Shown here: positions 25,832 to 40,981 of the stretch, in pieces
How the letters are laid out: each line of letters opens with the position of its first letter
Numbering within the stretch: the first letter of the stretch is position 1
Assembly (NCBI GenBank): GCA_965223345.1
Contig: CBDCWG010000007.1
Coordinates: 93,426 to 157,425, forward strand
Length of the DNA: 64,000 bases
Reading direction: 5' to 3'
DNA from: Nitrospinales bacterium
Lineage (GTDB): Bacteria > Nitrospinota > Nitrospinia > Nitrospinales > VA-1
Notes under the pieces: model-generated
What the model saw: the letters and a program-made list of their open reading frames with translations, nothing else
The model's database searches: none
What the model was told of the DNA's origin: nothing
Translations under genes and position numbers: made by a program

Positions 25832-27781
25832 ATGAGCGACAACGCAAAAAAATTCTACGTGACCACACCGATTTACTACGTGAACGACGTGCCGCACATC
25901 GGGCACGCGTACACCACCATCGCGGCCGATGTGATCGCGCGCTACAAAAAGCTCGACGGCCATGAGGTGTTCTTTCTCACCGGCACCGACGAACACGGGC
26001 AGAAGGTGCATCAGGCGGCGAAGGATCTGGGCGTCTCGGCGCAGGAACACGTGGACAAATTGAATGGGCGCTTCAAGGAGCTCTGGGTGCGCCTCAACAT
26101 CACGAACAACGATTTCATCCGCACCACCGAGGAGCGGCACAAAAAGGTGGTGCGCGAAATCCTCACCGATCTGTACGAGCGCAAGGAGATCTACAAGGAC
26201 ACTTACGAGGGCTGGTACTGCACGCCGGACGAGCGGTTCTGGACGGAGAAGGACCTGGTCAACGGCAACTGCCCGGAATGCGGCCGCAAGGTGGACAAGA
26301 TCCGCGAGCACAATTATTTTTTCAAGATGGGGCAGCACCGCGACTGGCTCGCAGATCACATCAAAAACAACGAGCACTTCATCCTGCCGGCTTCGCGGCG
26401 CAACGAGGTGCTGGGTTTTCTGAACAAGCCGCTGGAGGATCTGTGCATCTCGCGGCCGGTGGAGCGGATGCCCTGGGGCATCCCCCTGCCCTTCGACGAA
26501 AAATACGTCACCTACGTCTGGTTCGACGCGCTCATCAACTACATCTCGATCTTCGGCTCGCCCGATGCGATCCGCAGTTCGGGCTTCTGGCCGGCCGACC
26601 ACCACCTGGTGGGCAAGGACATCCTCACCACGCACGCGGTGTACTGGTCCACCATGCTGAAAGCGATCGGGCTGGACCTGCCGAAAAACATCTTCGCACA
26701 CGGCTGGTGGACGGTGAACGGGCAGAAGATGTCGAAATCGCTGCGCAATGTGGTGGAACCCAACCTGCTGATCGATCAGTTCGGCGTGGACGTGATCCGC
26801 TACTTCCTCATGCGCGAGGTGCCGTTCGGCCTGGACGGGGACTTTTCGCACAAGGCGCTGATCGGCAGGCAGAACAGCGATCTCGCCAACAACCTGGGCA
26901 ACTGCCTCAACCGCACCGTCAAGATGATGCACAAGTATTTCGACAACGGCGTAATCCCGGAACCCGGCGAGAGCGGCCCGGAGGACGCCGGCCTCAAAGA
27001 CACCGCCGCCAGGACGGTGGCGGAGGTGAAAAAACTCTACGACGATCTGGCGTACAACAAGATCCTCACGGAAATCTGGATCCTGGTGGACGCGACGAAC
27101 CAGTACATCGACAAGGCGGGTCCCTGGAACCTGGTGAAGACCGAAGAAGGCAAACAGCGCCTCAAGACGGTGATGTACAACGCCGCCGAATCGCTGCGCG
27201 TCGTGGCGATGCTGATCTATCCGTTCATGCCGCAGTCGGCCGAGAGCATGATGCAGCAGCTCGGCGTCGAAACGCCGATCGATAAACAGGGCATGGCTTC
27301 GGTGGAACAATGGGGCGGATTGCCCTCCGGCAAGCCCACGAAACCCGGTGCGCAACTGTTCCCGCGCATCGACGACAAGGCCGCGGCGAAGCTGCTGGCG
27401 GCGGCGGGAGCGGACGAAAAACCCCAGGCGCCCGCGAAAAAACCGGAAGCGCAGGACGGCCAGGTTTCGATCGACGATTTCATGAAGATCGATCTGCGCA
27501 CCGGCACCATCGTGGAAGCGGAGAAGGTGAAAAAATCGCGCAAGCTGGTCAAGCTGCAGGTGGACATCGGCAGCGAGACGCGGCAGGTGGTGGCGGGCAT
27601 CGCCGAAGCCTACGAGCCGCAGGACCTGGTGGGCAAGACCATCATCCTGGTGGCCAACCTGAAACCGGCGAAGCTGATGGGCATCGAATCGCAGGGCATG
27701 GTGCTGGCGGCGAGCGACGACGACAAAGTGCTGCTGGCCGGGTTCGCAGAAGAACCGGCGAAAGGAGTCCGCGTCAAATGA
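25832..27781 (+). CDS. metG: methionine--tRNA ligase with C-terminal tRNA-binding domain
   Basis: HIGH motif (PHIGHAYT), KMSKS motif, C-terminal EMAP-like domain. Confidence 0.95.
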   Translation: MSDNAKKFYVTTPIYYVNDVPHIGHAYTTIAADVIARYKKLDGHEVFFLTGTDEHGQKVHQAAKDLGVSAQEHVDKLNGRFKELWVRLNITNNDFIRTTEERHKKVVREILTDLYERKEIYKDTYEGWYCTPDERFWTEKDLVNGNCPECGRKVDKIREHNYFFKMGQHRDWLADHIKNNEHFILPASRRNEVLGFLNKPLEDLCISRPVERMPWGIPLPFDEKYVTYVWFDALINYISIFGSPDAIRSSGFWPADHHLVGKDILTTHAVYWSTMLKAIGLDLPKNIFAHGWWTVNGQKMSKSLRNVVEPNLLIDQFGVDVIRYFLMREVPFGLDGDFSHKALIGRQNSDLANNLGNCLNRTVKMMHKYFDNGVIPEPGESGPEDAGLKDTAARTVAEVKKLYDDLAYNKILTEIWILVDATNQYIDKAGPWNLVKTEEGKQRLKTVMYNAAESLRVVAMLIYPFMPQSAESMMQQLGVETPIDKQGMASVEQWGGLPSGKPTKPGAQLFPRIDDKAAAKLLAAAGADEKPQAPAKKPEAQDGQVSIDDFMKIDLRTGTIVEAEKVKKSRKLVKLQVDIGSETRQVVAGIAEAYEPQDLVGKTIILVANLKPAKLMGIESQGMVLAASDDDKVLLAGFAEEPAKGVRVK

Positions 27782-29169
27782 CGATCGACACGCACGCCCA
27801 TCTGGACATGGATTCCTTCGACACCGACCGGCAGGAGGTGATCCAAAGGGCCCAGGAACAGGGCGTGGATTACATCCTCAACATCGGCTGCGACGTGGAA
27901 AGCAGCGTCCGCTCGCTGGAGCTGGCCGAGCGCTACGATTTCATCTACGCCACGGCGGGGGTGCACCCGCACGACGTCAAGTCGATCAACGGCACCACCT
28001 ACGCGGACCTCAAGCGGTTGCTCGCGCACCCGAAGATGATCGCGGTGGGAGAGATCGGGCTGGATTTTTATAAGAACTACTCGCCGCAGGACATGCAGAA
28101 AGAGCACCTGCGCAAGCAGATGCAATTGGCGAAAGAGGTGGACAAGCCCATCATCGTGCACTGCCGCGACGCCAAGGAGGACATGATCGCCATCCTGTCC
28201 GAGTATTACCCGGTGAACGAGAAGGCCCGATCGGGCATCTTTCACTGCTTCTCGGGCGATCAGGAACTGGCGGAAGCGGCGCTGGAACGCGGCTTCTACA
28301 TTTCGTTTTCCGGATCGGTGACGTTCAAAAAATCCGACGAACTGCGCGAGGTGGCGAAGACGATCCCGGCGGACCGGCTGTTCGCCGAGACGGACTGCCC
28401 CTACCTTGCGCCGGTGCCCAAGCGCGGCAAGCGCAACGAACCGGCGTACGTGAACTTCACCACCGAACACCTGGCCGAGATCCGCGGGCTCAGGCTGGAG
28501 GATGTCAAGCGCACGATGGAGCTGAACTTTTTCGAGCTGTTCGGCATCGGCAAAAACGCCCCGATGGGCACGGTCTCCTATCAGATCCGCAACTCGCTGT
28601 ATCTCAACCTGACGACGCGGTGTACCAACGACTGCGTGTTCTGCTCGCGCCTGACCCGGCCGGTGGTGCAGGGCTACAACCTCAAGCTGGAGCGCGAACC
28701 GTCCGCAGAGGAAGTGTGGGCGGCGATCGACGACCCGGCGAAATACGATGAAGTGGTGTTCTGCGGTTACGGCGAGCCGACGCTCAGGCTGAACGTCATC
28801 AAGGAAGTGGCGAAAAAGATCAAGGACGCCGGCGGCCGCGTGCGGCTCAACACCAACGGCCACGGCAACGTCATCAACAAGCGCAACATCCTGCCGGAAC
28901 TGGCCGGACTGGTGGACGAGGTGTCGGTGAGCCTCAACACCGACACCGGCGATGCTTACGATGAGATCTGCCGGCCGCTGCCGGGATTCCGCAACGGCAT
29001 CTACGGCAAGATCAAGGAATTCATCGCGGAGGCCAAGATTCACATCCCCAAGGTGCAGGCCACGATCGTGACGCAGCAGGAAGGCGTGGACGAAACGGTC
29101 TGCGAGGACATCGTCAAAAAAGAATTCGGCGTGGACTACCGGGCCCGGCGCTACAACCTGGTCGGATGA
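27778..29169 (+). CDS. TatD-family hydrolase fused to a C-terminal radical SAM domain
   Basis: N-terminal TatD (MTIDTHAHLDMD...). C-terminal half carries a CTNDCVFC CxxxCxxC motif. The ATG overlaps the metG stop. Start taken at Met157 of the track ORF. Confidence 0.8.
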   Translation: MTIDTHAHLDMDSFDTDRQEVIQRAQEQGVDYILNIGCDVESSVRSLELAERYDFIYATAGVHPHDVKSINGTTYADLKRLLAHPKMIAVGEIGLDFYKNYSPQDMQKEHLRKQMQLAKEVDKPIIVHCRDAKEDMIAILSEYYPVNEKARSGIFHCFSGDQELAEAALERGFYISFSGSVTFKKSDELREVAKTIPADRLFAETDCPYLAPVPKRGKRNEPAYVNFTTEHLAEIRGLRLEDVKRTMELNFFELFGIGKNAPMGTVSYQIRNSLYLNLTTRCTNDCVFCSRLTRPVVQGYNLKLEREPSAEEVWAAIDDPAKYDEVVFCGYGEPTLRLNVIKEVAKKIKDAGGRVRLNTNGHGNVINKRNILPELAGLVDEVSVSLNTDTGDAYDEICRPLPGFRNGIYGKIKEFIAEAKIHIPKVQATIVTQQEGVDETVCEDIVKKEFGVDYRARRYNLVG

Positions 29170-29696: not shown

Positions 29697-30644
29697 ATGT
29701 CGAAAGACAGCCCAGATATTCTCCAATGCCCCTGTCAAGAAATCCACAAGGTTGAGCATGATGATATCTTGTTAAAACTTGAAAAAATTAGGGAAACTTG
29801 TCCTGCTTTAAAAAGCATCCTCATCCCCGATCGTGGATGGCATGAATATAAAAATTGGCATAAAAAAGATGACACGGTGGCATTTCATAGATCAATTCTA
29901 CTTATGGGCTTGAAAGATGGTTTTTTAGGAAACATAACAATTCTAATCCATAAATATTGTTTAGATAAACACGACATAAATCCCAATGTAAAAAAGCAAT
30001 ACATTAAAGACCTAGAGGAAAAATGGTTTAGCAAAACTGATTATAAAGAGCGACACAAAAAGTACCGAATTTTTATGGGCAAAATTGTTGAGTTAGCTTT
30101 TTCAAATTGGCTAGAAAGTAAGGAATACACCATATCAAACTTAGAGGCGTGGAGTGGGCAATATGACATAACTGCCTACAAGGAAAAGTTGACCTATAAT
30201 TTTGAGATAAAGTTTATCGGGCAGGAAGATGAGGATTTTAAGCACATTGTAAATAATCTTCGAGGAGGAACCTCTGTAGGTGGCGTTTCCCCTTATATAG
30301 CAGCAAACTTTCTCCTTTTTAGAGTATATGAGGCTGCTAAACAATTAGAGAATGCAAAAGGACCTGAACATCGAGTTGCAACAATAATTATTGATGGAAT
30401 GGCTTTTCCATATTTTAAAATTCTAATATTGGATCATTGGATCGATTGGTTTGAGCATCCGACTTTTAATGAAACTAGTGATCCAACTTGGGAGGAGTTT
30501 ATTGCATCTCAACGGAGCAAAAAATACCCCGATATTGATCATGAATTGCCAGAATTACTAAAAAAATTATCTGCGATAAAAATAATGAAAATAAATGGGT
30601 TCCAACTTGAAGAAGTAATTAAGTACAAAAACCCAAATATATAA
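29697..30644 (+). CDS. hypothetical 315-aa protein in a second very AT-rich single-gene islet (possible PD-(D/E)xK-like motif)
   Basis: The segment is roughly 33% GC. Contains D-x13-E-x-K (YDITAYKEKLTYNFEIKF), which is weak inference only. Confidence 0.6.
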   Translation: MSKDSPDILQCPCQEIHKVEHDDILLKLEKIRETCPALKSILIPDRGWHEYKNWHKKDDTVAFHRSILLMGLKDGFLGNITILIHKYCLDKHDINPNVKKQYIKDLEEKWFSKTDYKERHKKYRIFMGKIVELAFSNWLESKEYTISNLEAWSGQYDITAYKEKLTYNFEIKFIGQEDEDFKHIVNNLRGGTSVGGVSPYIAANFLLFRVYEAAKQLENAKGPEHRVATIIIDGMAFPYFKILILDHWIDWFEHPTFNETSDPTWEEFIASQRSKKYPDIDHELPELLKKLSAIKIMKINGFQLEEVIKYKNPNI

Positions 30645-38544: not shown

Positions 38545-39213
38545 TCAATCCACCGCGACCGGTTCCATCAACTCGGCATCGTTGTTCTCAACTTTGTTGA
38601 CCCGCTTGTCCACTTGCCAAAACTCGATTGCCTCATCCGCAAGCGGCTGAAGCAGGTACCCGAGATCTTTTCCTTCAATATTCAGGTCGAGCCACTGCTC
38701 AAACCGATCTTCGCTCAAGTGAACGGGCACGCGATGATGGATGGCTTGCAACACAGGGTTGGCGGCAGCGGTGAGGATGGCTACGGTTGGGATGGGAGCG
38801 GTGCCTTTGTTCGGCGCCCAGCTCGACCAGACCGCTGCGAATGAAAACATCCCTTCCCTGGGCTTGATGAAATACGGGGTCTTGGTCTCATCGTCCCGCT
38901 TCCACTCGTAAAATCCGCTTGCCGGTACGATGCAGCGCTGTTTTTTGAAACTCTCGCGGAATGTGGGTTTTTCTCCGATGGTTTCGGAACGGGCGTTGAT
39001 CATGGGCTTCTTGTCATCCTGTGCCCATGAGGGAATCAGTCCCCAGCGCAGCAAATGGATTTCACGTTGATGGGATTTCCTGGATTGAAGGACAACGGAG
39101 ATGTCGGTTTGCGGCGCGATGTTGTAGTTCGGATCGAAAGGAGCGCGGTTTTTTGCTTTGTAGAAATGCTCCAGTTCCCGTTCTGATGCTATTTGAACGA
39201 ATCTGCCGGGCAT
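38545..39213 (-). CDS. SRAP/YedK (DUF159) homolog with Cys2 replaced by Pro
   Basis: N-terminus reads MPGRF (atg ccc ggc) rather than the invariant MCGRF. Downstream of umuC. Confidence 0.8.
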   Translation of the reverse strand: MPGRFVQIASERELEHFYKAKNRAPFDPNYNIAPQTDISVVLQSRKSHQREIHLLRWGLIPSWAQDDKKPMINARSETIGEKPTFRESFKKQRCIVPASGFYEWKRDDETKTPYFIKPREGMFSFAAVWSSWAPNKGTAPIPTVAILTAAANPVLQAIHHRVPVHLSEDRFEQWLDLNIEGKDLGYLLQPLADEAIEFWQVDKRVNKVENNDAELMEPVAVD

Positions 39214-39216
39214 CGT

Positions 39217-40470
39217 TCAGACCACCGTCAACAGTTCATCCCACTGCGTCGTGTATCGTGGCGACCGCAAGCCGCAGCGCATCTTCCATTCCCGGGTGAT
39301 TCCCTCTGCCCCAAAGAACAGCGTGTTGGGGCCGTGGCGGTCATTGATCCGGTCCAAAATACTCATCAAATGGTCTCTCTGCCCCCGATTCTGTTTCACA
39401 AACAAATGACCCTGCTCCATAGAATCGGGGATCAGGTCCAGCAGCATGAGCCCGGTTTTCTTGTAGCGGTATCCCGGCTTGTAAATCTTGTTCAGGCAAT
39501 ACTTTGCCACTGCGATGACGATGCGCGTGTCGCTGGTCGGGACCGGCAGGGTGCAGGTCATCCCGTTGTTGTATTGCTGGTCGTCTGGCCTGAACTCACT
39601 GGTGCATACAAACACATAGACGGCTTGGGCGCGGCTGTTCTGGTTTCTGAGCTTCTCGCAGGCCCGCGCTGCGTAATTGGACAGGGCTTCTTCCAATGGC
39701 CGCTTTTCCGTGAGCAGATTGCCGAACGACTTGGACGACATGATATTTTTGCGCGGCTGAATATCCTCCAGATCGATACAGGACTGCCCTCTGAGTTCCC
39801 GCAGGATGCGCTCTCCCACCACGGATAGTTGCTTGCGGATGATGTGCGGGTGCGCGTCTCTGAGCTGCGATGCTTTGCGGATACCCATTCGGCCCAACCG
39901 CTCGGCCCAGCCACCGGCTATGCCCCATACTTTGTGGACATCCAGTTTTTTCAGGATTTCCTCCTGTATCTGTACATTCCGGATATCGAATACGCCGTCC
40001 CGTTTCTTGGCAACGTGATTGGCCGCCTTCGCCAACACCTTGGAAGGGCCGATGCCGATGGACACCAGAATGCCGGTCCATTGCATGACCTTCCTGCGGA
40101 TCTTCTGGCAGTACGCGTCGAGATTTTCGTGCGGCAGGCGATCCAATCGTAGAAACGCTTCATCGATCGAATACACTTCCATATCAGGACAGAAAAGGCG
40201 CAGGCTGTCCATCACCCTTTGCGACATGTCGCCGTAAAGTTGGTAGTTCGAGGAAAAGACCGCGATCTTGTGCTTTTTAATCAGTTTTTCGTGCTCGAAA
40301 TAAGGCACCGCCATCGGGATGTTGAGGGCCTTGGCCTCACTGGAACGGGCAACGATGCAACCATCGTTGTTCGAAAGCACGACGATAGGACGGCCTTTTA
40401 GAGCGGGGTTGAAAACACGCTCGCAGGAAGCATAGAAGTTGTTGCAGTCCACCAGGGCGAAGATCTTCAT
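39217..40470 (-). CDS. umuC: Y-family translesion DNA polymerase subunit UmuC
   Basis: N-terminus ALVDCNNFYASCE. Confidence 0.9.
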   Translation of the reverse strand: MKIFALVDCNNFYASCERVFNPALKGRPIVVLSNNDGCIVARSSEAKALNIPMAVPYFEHEKLIKKHKIAVFSSNYQLYGDMSQRVMDSLRLFCPDMEVYSIDEAFLRLDRLPHENLDAYCQKIRRKVMQWTGILVSIGIGPSKVLAKAANHVAKKRDGVFDIRNVQIQEEILKKLDVHKVWGIAGGWAERLGRMGIRKASQLRDAHPHIIRKQLSVVGERILRELRGQSCIDLEDIQPRKNIMSSKSFGNLLTEKRPLEEALSNYAARACEKLRNQNSRAQAVYVFVCTSEFRPDDQQYNNGMTCTLPVPTSDTRIVIAVAKYCLNKIYKPGYRYKKTGLMLLDLIPDSMEQGHLFVKQNRGQRDHLMSILDRINDRHGPNTLFFGAEGITREWKMRCGLRSPRYTTQWDELLTVV

Positions 40471-40904
40471 AAAAGATTATGCAGGCAATGGGTCACCACG
40501 CCCCAAACCGTGACCTCGTTGCCTTCCTGCAGCTCAATCGGCGGGTGGTTCGGGTTTTCCGATTGCAGCGCAATCCGCCCGTTCATCTTGAACAACCGCT
40601 TAACAGTCAACTGGCCATCCACCTCGGCAATCACAATTTTGCGATGGGATGGCTCCAGGCTGCGATCGACGATCAATAAGTCTCCATCAAAAATTCCCGC
40701 TCCGGTCATGGAGTCCCCGGAAGCCCTGACAAAATAAGTCGCCGAAGGATGTTTTATGACATGCTCGTTGAGGTCGAGTGCCCCTTCCATGTAGTCGTCG
40801 GCGGGAGACGGGAACCCGGCTTCGACCCGGCACAAGGCGACGGGAACGGGGGTGCGCTCATGGGTATTGGCAGCAACCAGAGGATTCGCCATGGGGAAGA
40901 GCAT
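40467..40904 (-). CDS. umuD: UmuD / LexA-like S24 peptidase
   Basis: S24 Ser-Lys dyad region (GDSMTGAGIFDGDLLIVDR...KRL). Overlaps the umuC start. Confidence 0.85.
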   Translation of the reverse strand: MLFPMANPLVAANTHERTPVPVALCRVEAGFPSPADDYMEGALDLNEHVIKHPSATYFVRASGDSMTGAGIFDGDLLIVDRSLEPSHRKIVIAEVDGQLTVKRLFKMNGRIALQSENPNHPPIELQEGNEVTVWGVVTHCLHNLL

Positions 40905-40981
40905 ACCTTCCGTACTACAGAAGTGTCAATCTAATTTTCGCTAAATTTTCGCCCTCTGAAAAATGAATGAAGCAGTTGCTT

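Follow-up and report, generated by a model that had tools for sequence, protein, structure and literature searches.

Can a protein of the SRAP family still act on abasic (AP) sites after losing the cysteine by which the family is defined, and if so, with what chemistry? The question is raised by a umuD-umuC-SRAP cassette at positions 38545-40904 of a 64,000-nucleotide stretch of a Nitrospinales contig (CBDCWG010000007.1; the whole stretch is called the window below), whose SRAP gene encodes the N-terminus MPGRF instead of MCGRF. In the literature, an invariant Cys2 and a suicide thiazolidine crosslink define the SRAP/HMCES proteins; the crosslink shields abasic sites of single-stranded DNA and keeps mutagenic bypass in check. 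We found that the Cys-to-Pro swap recurs across the family: judging from sequence comparisons, it has independent origins in many SRAP lineages, where purifying selection keeps it. Since the swap has been fixed and selectively kept in many unrelated bacteria, Pro2 is probably a functional variant, one that cuts abasic sites or binds them transiently instead of crosslinking to them. For the window SRAP itself, we propose with moderate confidence that it is a natural Pro2 variant of YedK/HMCES, whose proline (Pro1 after removal of the initiator methionine) would form an iminium with an abasic site and act as a lyase or a transient binder, leaving no stable crosslink.

The preliminary description of the window had placed a umuD-umuC-SRAP cassette here, with Pro in place of Cys2 of the SRAP protein, and both points were confirmed: the three minus-strand open reading frames (ORFs) were recovered by Pfam and NCBIfam profiles, and codon 2 of the SRAP gene is read directly as CCC (Table 1). 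Relatives carry TGC or TGT at this codon, so that at least two adjacent substitutions lie between CCC and a Cys codon, as had been argued earlier; the two changes could represent a single tandem event. An upstream start giving MCGR, which the preliminary description had named as a finding that would refute it, was looked for and excluded. At the umuC-SRAP junction (GTC TGA ACG ATG CCC GGC AGA TTC), the umuC stop codon lies in the SRAP frame, 6 nt or two codons upstream, which makes such a start impossible, and the N-terminus of the window SRAP aligns residue for residue, from residue 1, with those of MCGRF relatives.

Homology and fold place the window protein in the SRAP domain family. Comparison with YedK and HMCES chains by phmmer gave E-values of 1e-22 to 1e-28. 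An AlphaFold2 model (predicted local distance difference test, pLDDT, 94.1; predicted template modeling score, pTM, 0.92) was matched by Foldseek to YedK, HMCES and BT_1218 with template modeling (TM) scores of 0.83-0.89 and E ~1e-20, as well as to the YedK C2A-DNA Schiff-base complex, and the significant structural matches were SRAP proteins only. The window SRAP keeps 22/22 columns that are invariant in a 49-sequence family alignment, together with the equivalents of YedK G3, R4, N75, R77, E105, W106, T149, H160 and R162 (of which N75, R77, E105, T149, H160 and R162 correspond to N73, R75, E103, T148, H159 and R161 of the window protein). R4, R77, T149 and R162 bind DNA, and Cys2 is the one catalytic or DNA-binding residue that is changed. 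The expectation that the remainder of the N-terminal motif and the fold would be conserved was thus borne out. Set against a consensus of the five relatives closest to it, the protein carries 11 private substitutions, namely C2P, A6V and nine mostly conservative changes. The pairwise ω (dN/dS) between the window SRAP and its Cys2 relatives is approximately 0.11-0.12, with dS saturated.

The N-terminal Cys2, which provides both the amine and the thiol used by YedK and HMCES for crosslinking, is absent from the window SRAP. A six-frame search of the window with a hidden Markov model (HMM) found no second SRAP gene, so that no canonical paralog is present there to compensate. Because Cys2 is absent, no upstream start is available and no second SRAP gene lies in the window, the protein should be kept out of the class of thiazolidine-forming crosslinkers. 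The behavior of the YedK C2A and C2S mutants predicts that it would not form a stable crosslink (PMC9436759).

The occurrence of Pro2 in other SRAP proteins was surveyed with a degenerate DNA pattern encoding M-P-G-R-[FY]...[YF]-N-[IVM]-A-P, which was run on species-representative genomes, JGI metagenomes and viral contigs. The genome scan yielded 38 loci, among them 26 full-length MPGR SRAPs and one fragment, in Anaerolineales (7 species), Hyphomonas and relatives (3), Opitutaceae (2), Caldisericales (2), Dongia/Rhodospirillaceae (2), Methylocapsa/Roseiarcus (2), Desulfovibrio, Algoriphagus, Dadabacteria, Sulfuricella and others. Of 42 matches in the JGI metagenomes, 33 are SRAPs, and these brought in further clades; in all, the directed scans supplied about 60 MPGR SRAPs besides that of the window, from many phyla. 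Viral contigs gave 0 matches to the MPGR pattern, and 79/79 sampled viral SRAPs with intact N-termini carry Cys. Dongia soli D78 and Methylocapsa sp. S129, both cultured isolates, carry Pro2 SRAPs, which are therefore not an artefact of metagenome-assembled genomes (MAGs). Clustering of the complete Pro2 proteins at 55% identity gives 21 groups, each at most 43% identical to the window SRAP, which argues that the window protein and the other Pro2 SRAPs originated independently. Identity between the groups (34-47%) is likewise no higher than to arbitrary Cys2 SRAPs. In one Desulfovibrio MAG contig, two Pro2 copies lie approximately 4 kb apart, one full-length with 226 aa and the other a 74-aa fragment (L033:1476-2156 and L023:5893-6117).

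The homolog searches started from the window SRAP, an Anaerolineales SRAP and a Nitrospirota-type SRAP (locus L068) directly place the Pro2 clades inside Cys2 lineages. In the Anaerolineales clade, Pro2 is found in 64/64 cluster representatives down to approximately 55% identity; the 54 sequences that follow begin with MCGR and share the N-terminal region. The L068 clade comprises four Pro2 proteins and reached CCC from a TGC sister, an MCGRF protein at 65% identity; P0429 is a separate Pro2 singleton in the same homolog list. Around the window SRAP, the five nearest full-length relatives (63-72% identity) are all MCGRF, and among the 120 homologs listed, 109 are MCGRF, one is MCGSF and the remainder are N-terminally truncated, giving Cys in 110. 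A search for C2P in relatives, as recommended in the preliminary description, found the change in none of the listed members of the window protein's own subfamily and in at least 21 other groups. Approximately 575 N-termini came from undirected lists (homolog searches, viral loci and 150 cluster representatives at 50% identity); their residue 2 is either Cys (~506) or Pro (~70), and nothing else. With the SRAP family numbering ~50,000 representatives at 50% identity, Pro2 appears to be rare but recurrent, at a frequency probably well below 1%.

Within Pro2 clades, dN/dS is 0.03-0.22 at dS of 0.14-2.0, and the Pro2 codon drifts synonymously among CCC, CCG, CCA and CCT, with Pro itself invariant within clades. 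In the Anaerolineales Pro2 proteins, P2, G3, R4, N75, R77, E105, W106, T149, H160 and R162 are each conserved in 63/63. For comparison, N75, E105 and H160 are each found in 399/399 Cys2 SRAPs, and P164 in 398/399. Together with Trp103, Ile147 and Thr149, Pro164 forms the hydrophobic pocket in which the thiazolidine ring sits (PMC6821365). We found P164G in 4/24 Pro2 representatives, from four independent groups, as compared with 0/399 Cys2 proteins (Fisher p = 8e-6), and T150C and I147T in three each of the 24; all three changes are absent or nearly absent in the 399 Cys2 SRAPs. The remodelled columns (YedK 147, 150 and 164) were seen in L022, L034, L067, L075 and L049. The thiazolidine pocket has thus been remodelled convergently in several Pro2 groups. 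A rationale for such changes might be that a pyrrolidine is isosteric with the thiazolidine ring, and conceivably, though this is speculative, Cys150 beside the pocket traps the proline iminium. No second-site signature universal to all Pro2 SRAPs was identified; a candidate, D161H, is lineage-specific and also occurs in the Cys2 relatives of the window protein. The Pro2 class is heterogeneous, and the window SRAP belongs to its largest type, in which the Asn-Glu-His triad and the pocket are unchanged.

The Anaerolineales Pro2 SRAP genes lie directly downstream of a gene for a radical S-adenosylmethionine (radical-SAM) and helix-hairpin-helix protein of approximately 400 aa (Table 1). This protein resembles TIGR03916 (rSAM_link_UDG), with a score of 276.7 bits that is below the cut-off of 343.5. 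The TIGR03916 family is normally paired with a protein resembling uracil-DNA glycosylase (UDG). Two Cys2 sister genes (L168 and L170) do not adjoin the radical-SAM gene, which suggests that the Cys-to-Pro switch in Anaerolineales coincides with a new gene partnership. Linkage to DNA polymerase V (Pol V) was considered as a general feature of Pro2 SRAPs and rejected, as only L044/L068 adjoin umuD and umuC among the Pro2 loci found by the scans. L068 (350-2901) is a second Pol V-linked Pro2 SRAP, with the gene order SRAP-umuD-PD-(D/E)XK nuclease-umuC and a PIN toxin gene upstream. The Cys2 sister operon of L068 (L164:1-9216) lies beside LigD, DUF72 and SprT-like genes, a dense DNA-repair neighborhood.

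The chemistry that we propose for Pro2 draws on published work. In canonical SRAP crosslinking, the α-amine of Cys2 attacks C1' of the ring-opened AP site with catalysis by Glu105 and His160, giving a Schiff base, after which the Cys2 thiol closes the thiazolidine ring (PMC9436759). YedK C2A and C2S form no stable crosslink; they form a borohydride-trappable Schiff base via the N-terminal amine and cleave AP-DNA (PMC9436759). Canonical SRAP crosslinks are described in the same report as restraining translesion synthesis (PMC9436759). In Fpg/Nei, and also in Nei2 acting on single-stranded DNA, the Schiff-base nucleophile is an N-terminal Pro freed by methionine aminopeptidase (PMC11323726). The window SRAP begins with Met-Pro-Gly, as read directly from the sequence, and removal of its Met1 by methionine aminopeptidase, exposing the secondary amine of Pro, is expected from the specificity of that enzyme and from the Nei2 precedent (PMC11323726). 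Glu103 and His159 would then open the abasic sugar as in YedK, and attack of Pro on C1' would yield an iminium adduct (Schiff-base-type). With the thiol absent, no thiazolidine crosslink could follow. The adduct would instead proceed to β-elimination, that is, lyase activity toward AP sites in single-stranded DNA as in Fpg/Nei/Nei2 and YedK C2A, or dissociate, the protein then serving as a transient, non-blocking shield. Within a Pol V operon, abasic sites in the template might in this way escape a lasting protein crosslink, which blocks translesion synthesis (TLS), and instead be incised or left freely accessible to Pol V.

Comparison with known systems delimits this proposal. The window SRAP shares with YedK and HMCES (PDB 6NUA, 6KBZ, 5KO9 and 6OOV) the domain, the fold and the active-site equivalents listed above, but it lacks the residue whose amine and thiol build the crosslink, and ring closure with Pro is chemically impossible. 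It resembles in this respect the YedK C2A and C2S mutants (PDB 8D2M, which is among the best structural matches of the model), since both have a SRAP active site without a thiol. The mutants, however, offer the primary amine of Ala or Ser, whereas Pro offers a secondary amine, and the natural Pro2 variants, unlike the laboratory ones, are evolutionarily maintained, with pockets that are sometimes remodelled. Fpg, Nei and Nei2 also carry an N-terminal Pro, which attacks the abasic C1' as a nucleophile before β-elimination, but their H2TH and zinc-finger fold is not that of SRAP, and the likeness would be one of mechanism, not of homology. The other Pro2 clades (Anaerolineales, Hyphomonas, Methylocapsa/Roseiarcus, Dongia, Opitutaceae, Caldisericales and L068, among others) show the same replacement in an otherwise canonical SRAP; most differ from the window SRAP in having no Pol V linkage, the L068 protein being alike in adjoining umuD and umuC, and the Anaerolineales proteins differ in their radical-SAM partner and remodelled pocket. 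On a broader and more tentative view, the Pro2 SRAPs may be a repeatedly invented class in which a suicide crosslinker became a proline-iminium turnover enzyme, either a lyase for AP sites in single-stranded DNA or a reversible shield, with pockets re-engineered in some clades (P164G, T150C and I147T) and with new operon partners (Pol V in the window and L068, a TIGR03916-like radical-SAM protein in Anaerolineales), the window gene being a young member that acts with Pol V.

Several observations weigh against a working Pro2 enzyme in the window. Its SRAP is the sole Pro2 member of its own subfamily among the listed homologs, and the metagenome pattern scan returned no Pro2 relative from that subfamily, so that selection after the switch is unmeasurable for this gene. 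It also lacks the remodelled pocket of the Pro2 clade with the best sampling. Elsewhere, five Pro2 groups have lost Asn75, Glu105 or His160, and one Pro2 SRAP (P0427) is frameshifted after PIHDRMPVI, with its C-terminal part in the +1 frame. Since the identical frameshifted form recurs in three contigs of different samples, P0427 is a decaying Pro2 copy, and these triad losses and the frameshift indicate that Pro2 may also be, in some lineages, a step to loss or change of function. The specificity for Pro at position 2 is drawn from the undirected samples and from conservation within clades, and the proposed chemistry from YedK mutants and Fpg/Nei. In Nei2, the reciprocal swap P2C is inactive (PMC11323726), and nucleophile swaps are thus not automatically tolerated. 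Lyase action at AP sites of a single-stranded template would moreover break the DNA, which is hard to square with a protective role. One competing explanation is a recent null allele, in which a tandem TG-to-CC change in codon 2 left the ORF otherwise undamaged and the protein dead, or at best a weak adventitious lyase. Such an allele would account for a singleton among Cys2 relatives without compensatory pocket changes, and it agrees with the triad erosion and frameshift in other Pro2 lineages; the pairwise ω against relatives averages long branches and cannot date C2P, and the apparent C-terminal disruption of the SRAP gene in one relative (L001) points to a gene that is dispensable in some hosts. 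However, random nulls would far more often be frameshift, nonsense or single-base missense mutations (to Arg, Ser, Gly, Tyr, Phe or Trp), whereas Pro requires two specific adjacent changes, by our count 1/27 of the double mutants of TGC, and this very residue has become fixed, and stays conserved, in 21 or more other groups. The 22 invariant columns and the tight translational coupling are also retained. We consider a null allele unlikely, although it deserves serious attention. The preliminary description had left the choice between a dead and a mechanistically different SRAP; the comparative data, namely recurrence, ω of 0.03-0.22 and mostly kept catalytic residues, favor "different" for the class, and perhaps also for the window gene itself, a singleton among Cys2 relatives.

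A second competing explanation is that the nucleophile is irrelevant, the protein serving as a binder of AP sites or single-stranded DNA or as an accessory subunit of Pol V. A 2026 survey proposes that SRAP-like proteins are Y-polymerase-binding regulatory subunits tied to UmuC-like polymerases (PMC12926913), YedK C2A still binds single-stranded DNA (Kd of 7.9 vs 2.2 μM; PMC6821365), and the five Pro2 groups with triad losses remain under purifying selection (e.g. Hyphomonas, ω ~0.03). On the other hand, Asn, Glu and His would be needless for a pure binder, but they are kept in the window SRAP and in most Pro2 groups, including all 63 Anaerolineales proteins, and within clades the Pro residue does not vary even though its codon does; a purely non-catalytic role thus seems improbable. 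Far less probable still is an assembly or consensus error, by which a true TGC at codon 2 would have been turned into CCC in a metagenome-assembled contig. The identical protein has one occurrence in a collection of 5.8 billion proteins, and it and its neighbors are known from one 377-kb contig and were not observed a second time in the databases. Two adjacent substitutions without an indel would nevertheless be an unusual type of error, one that by chance yields the only alternative residue that nature repeatedly uses, and the surrounding ORFs are intact. Taken together, these considerations lead us to prefer the proposal that the window SRAP is a natural Pro2 variant acting through a proline iminium.

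Full-text searching of the literature found no mention of natural Pro2 SRAPs, and the recurrent class appears to be previously undescribed, the window gene being one more, possibly young, instance. If the proposal is correct, the selectively maintained Pro2 versions would show that the SRAP scaffold supports a second chemistry, and they would stand as the natural equivalent of the C2A lyase made in the laboratory. A further gain would be an experimental handle on how cells choose among shielding, cutting and bypassing abasic sites, and a direct one, because variants occur in cultured isolates (Dongia soli and Methylocapsa sp. S129) and two lie in Pol V operons. Even if the window allele proves to be null, it would still have been a useful pointer that revealed the wider Pro2 class.

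The umuD, umuC and SRAP genes form an intact, tightly (translationally) coupled minus-strand operon (Table 1), with umuD and umuC overlapping by 4 nt. Linkage of umuDC with SRAP has already been published (Aravind et al. 2013). UmuC scores above its family cut-off, and in UmuD, the autoproteolytic subunit of Pol V, the S24 Ser/Lys dyad and the cleavage site are present, the EA/GFPSP cleavage-site motif, the GDSM serine and the TVKRL lysine all being conserved in the alignment. Identity of umuC to that of cassette relatives is 80-84%, with ω of 0.02-0.12.

Table 1. Coordinates of the cassette and of related loci (window positions unless a locus is named)
Feature	Position	Strand	Basis
Operon promoter TTGACA-18 nt-TATGCT at 40929..40900, plus conserved block GGCGAAAATTTAGCGAAAATTAGATTGAC before it	40900..40955	(-)	consensus scan
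umuD	40467..40904	(-)	longest ORF from 40904; Peptidase_S24 114 bits; NCBIfam NF007621 165.9 bits (cut-off 110)
umuC, Y-family Pol V catalytic subunit	39217..40470	(-)	Pfam IMS, IMS_C, DUF4113; NCBIfam NF002955 432.9 bits (cut-off 431)
SRAP gene, 222 aa, MPGRF N-terminus	38545..39213	(-)	PF02586 222.1 bits (cut-off 27.1), profile 1-214/214
SRAP codon 2, CCC (Pro), at the family's TGY (Cys2, thiazolidine-forming nucleophile)	39208..39210	(-)	direct sequence reading
Asn73 codon (YedK Asn75 equivalent)	38995..38997	(-)	alignment to YedK
Glu103 codon (YedK Glu105 equivalent)	38905..38907	(-)	alignment to YedK; Glu105 role from PMC9436759
His159 codon (YedK His160 equivalent)	38737..38739	(-)	alignment to YedK
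Anaerolineales radical-SAM/Pro2 SRAP partnership loci	L006:5329-6528, L022:2188-3447, L032:1493-2707, L047:5225-6475		
P0427 frameshift loci	L166:1272-1950, L167:1161-1676		

The umuD promoter matches the consensus at 10/12 hexamer positions, and TATGCT, its predicted -10 box, shares bases with the first ATG of the long umuD ORF (window 40892-40905). The real umuD start is most likely the second ATG, at 40892, since the genes of relatives start there (Met5), just after the predicted -10 box; UmuD would then have 141 aa and would probably be translated from a leaderless mRNA or one with a very short leader. Just upstream of the -35 box, a block of approximately 25 nt (GGCRAAAATTTAGCGAAAAT..ATTGAC; window 40930-40955, minus strand) is near-identical in the window, L001 (6275-6300) and L002 (2130-2155), despite saturated synonymous sites in the genes. 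It contains two GCRAAAAT repeats, 11 nt apart, and could be an UP element or an operator for some regulator. A LexA box of the E. coli type (CTGT-N8-ACAG) was searched for at the operon promoter, and none matching this E. coli consensus was found.

Relatives share the umuD-umuC-SRAP arrangement, which in L001 and L003 lies beside phage capsid and terminase genes and in L002 beside an integrase and a TrwB-type coupling protein. Since homologs share the promoter block and lie in such prophage and integrative-element contexts, the promoter-umuD-umuC-SRAP unit appears to behave as mobile-element cargo. The flanks of the window cassette are ordinary chromosomal genes (MoxR/Bat-type, HTTM, DCC1, fliD/fliS and sucCD). 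No integrase, tRNA or convincing flanking repeats were found around it, and no rRNA or tRNA genes across the window. Mobility had originally been suggested from a cassette GC content of about 50%. The cassette is indeed lower in GC, but this figure was overstated (54.8% vs 57.8% for the window, z = -0.85). Bulk GC was rejected as evidence of foreign origin, the difference being not significant, and GC at third codon positions (GC3; 0.64-0.72 in the cassette vs ~0.75-0.86 in most neighbors) is merely suggestive; the idea of mobility is better served by the shared promoter block and by the contexts of the homologs. On the 3.25-Mb contig of L001 (8001-8682), a Cys2 SRAP call of 186 aa is succeeded by a 45-aa ORF that overlaps it, which suggests a C-terminal frameshift in this copy. 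In L002 (2716-3774), an IS-type transposase gene (HTH and rve) is inserted between umuD and umuC.

Two further ORFs of the window were noted outside the cassette. The plus-strand ORF at 29697-30644 (315 aa) has a GC content of 0.345 and a GC3 of 0.31 within the 58%-GC window and gave no Pfam, NCBIfam or PADLOC match; it looks like a recently acquired gene. Adjoining it is a 619-aa plus-strand ORF (27310-29169) that matches the PADLOC models QatD (TatD-like, E 4e-29, residues 156-410) and pVip (viperin-like radical-SAM, E 7e-7, residues 431-586), an unusual fusion.

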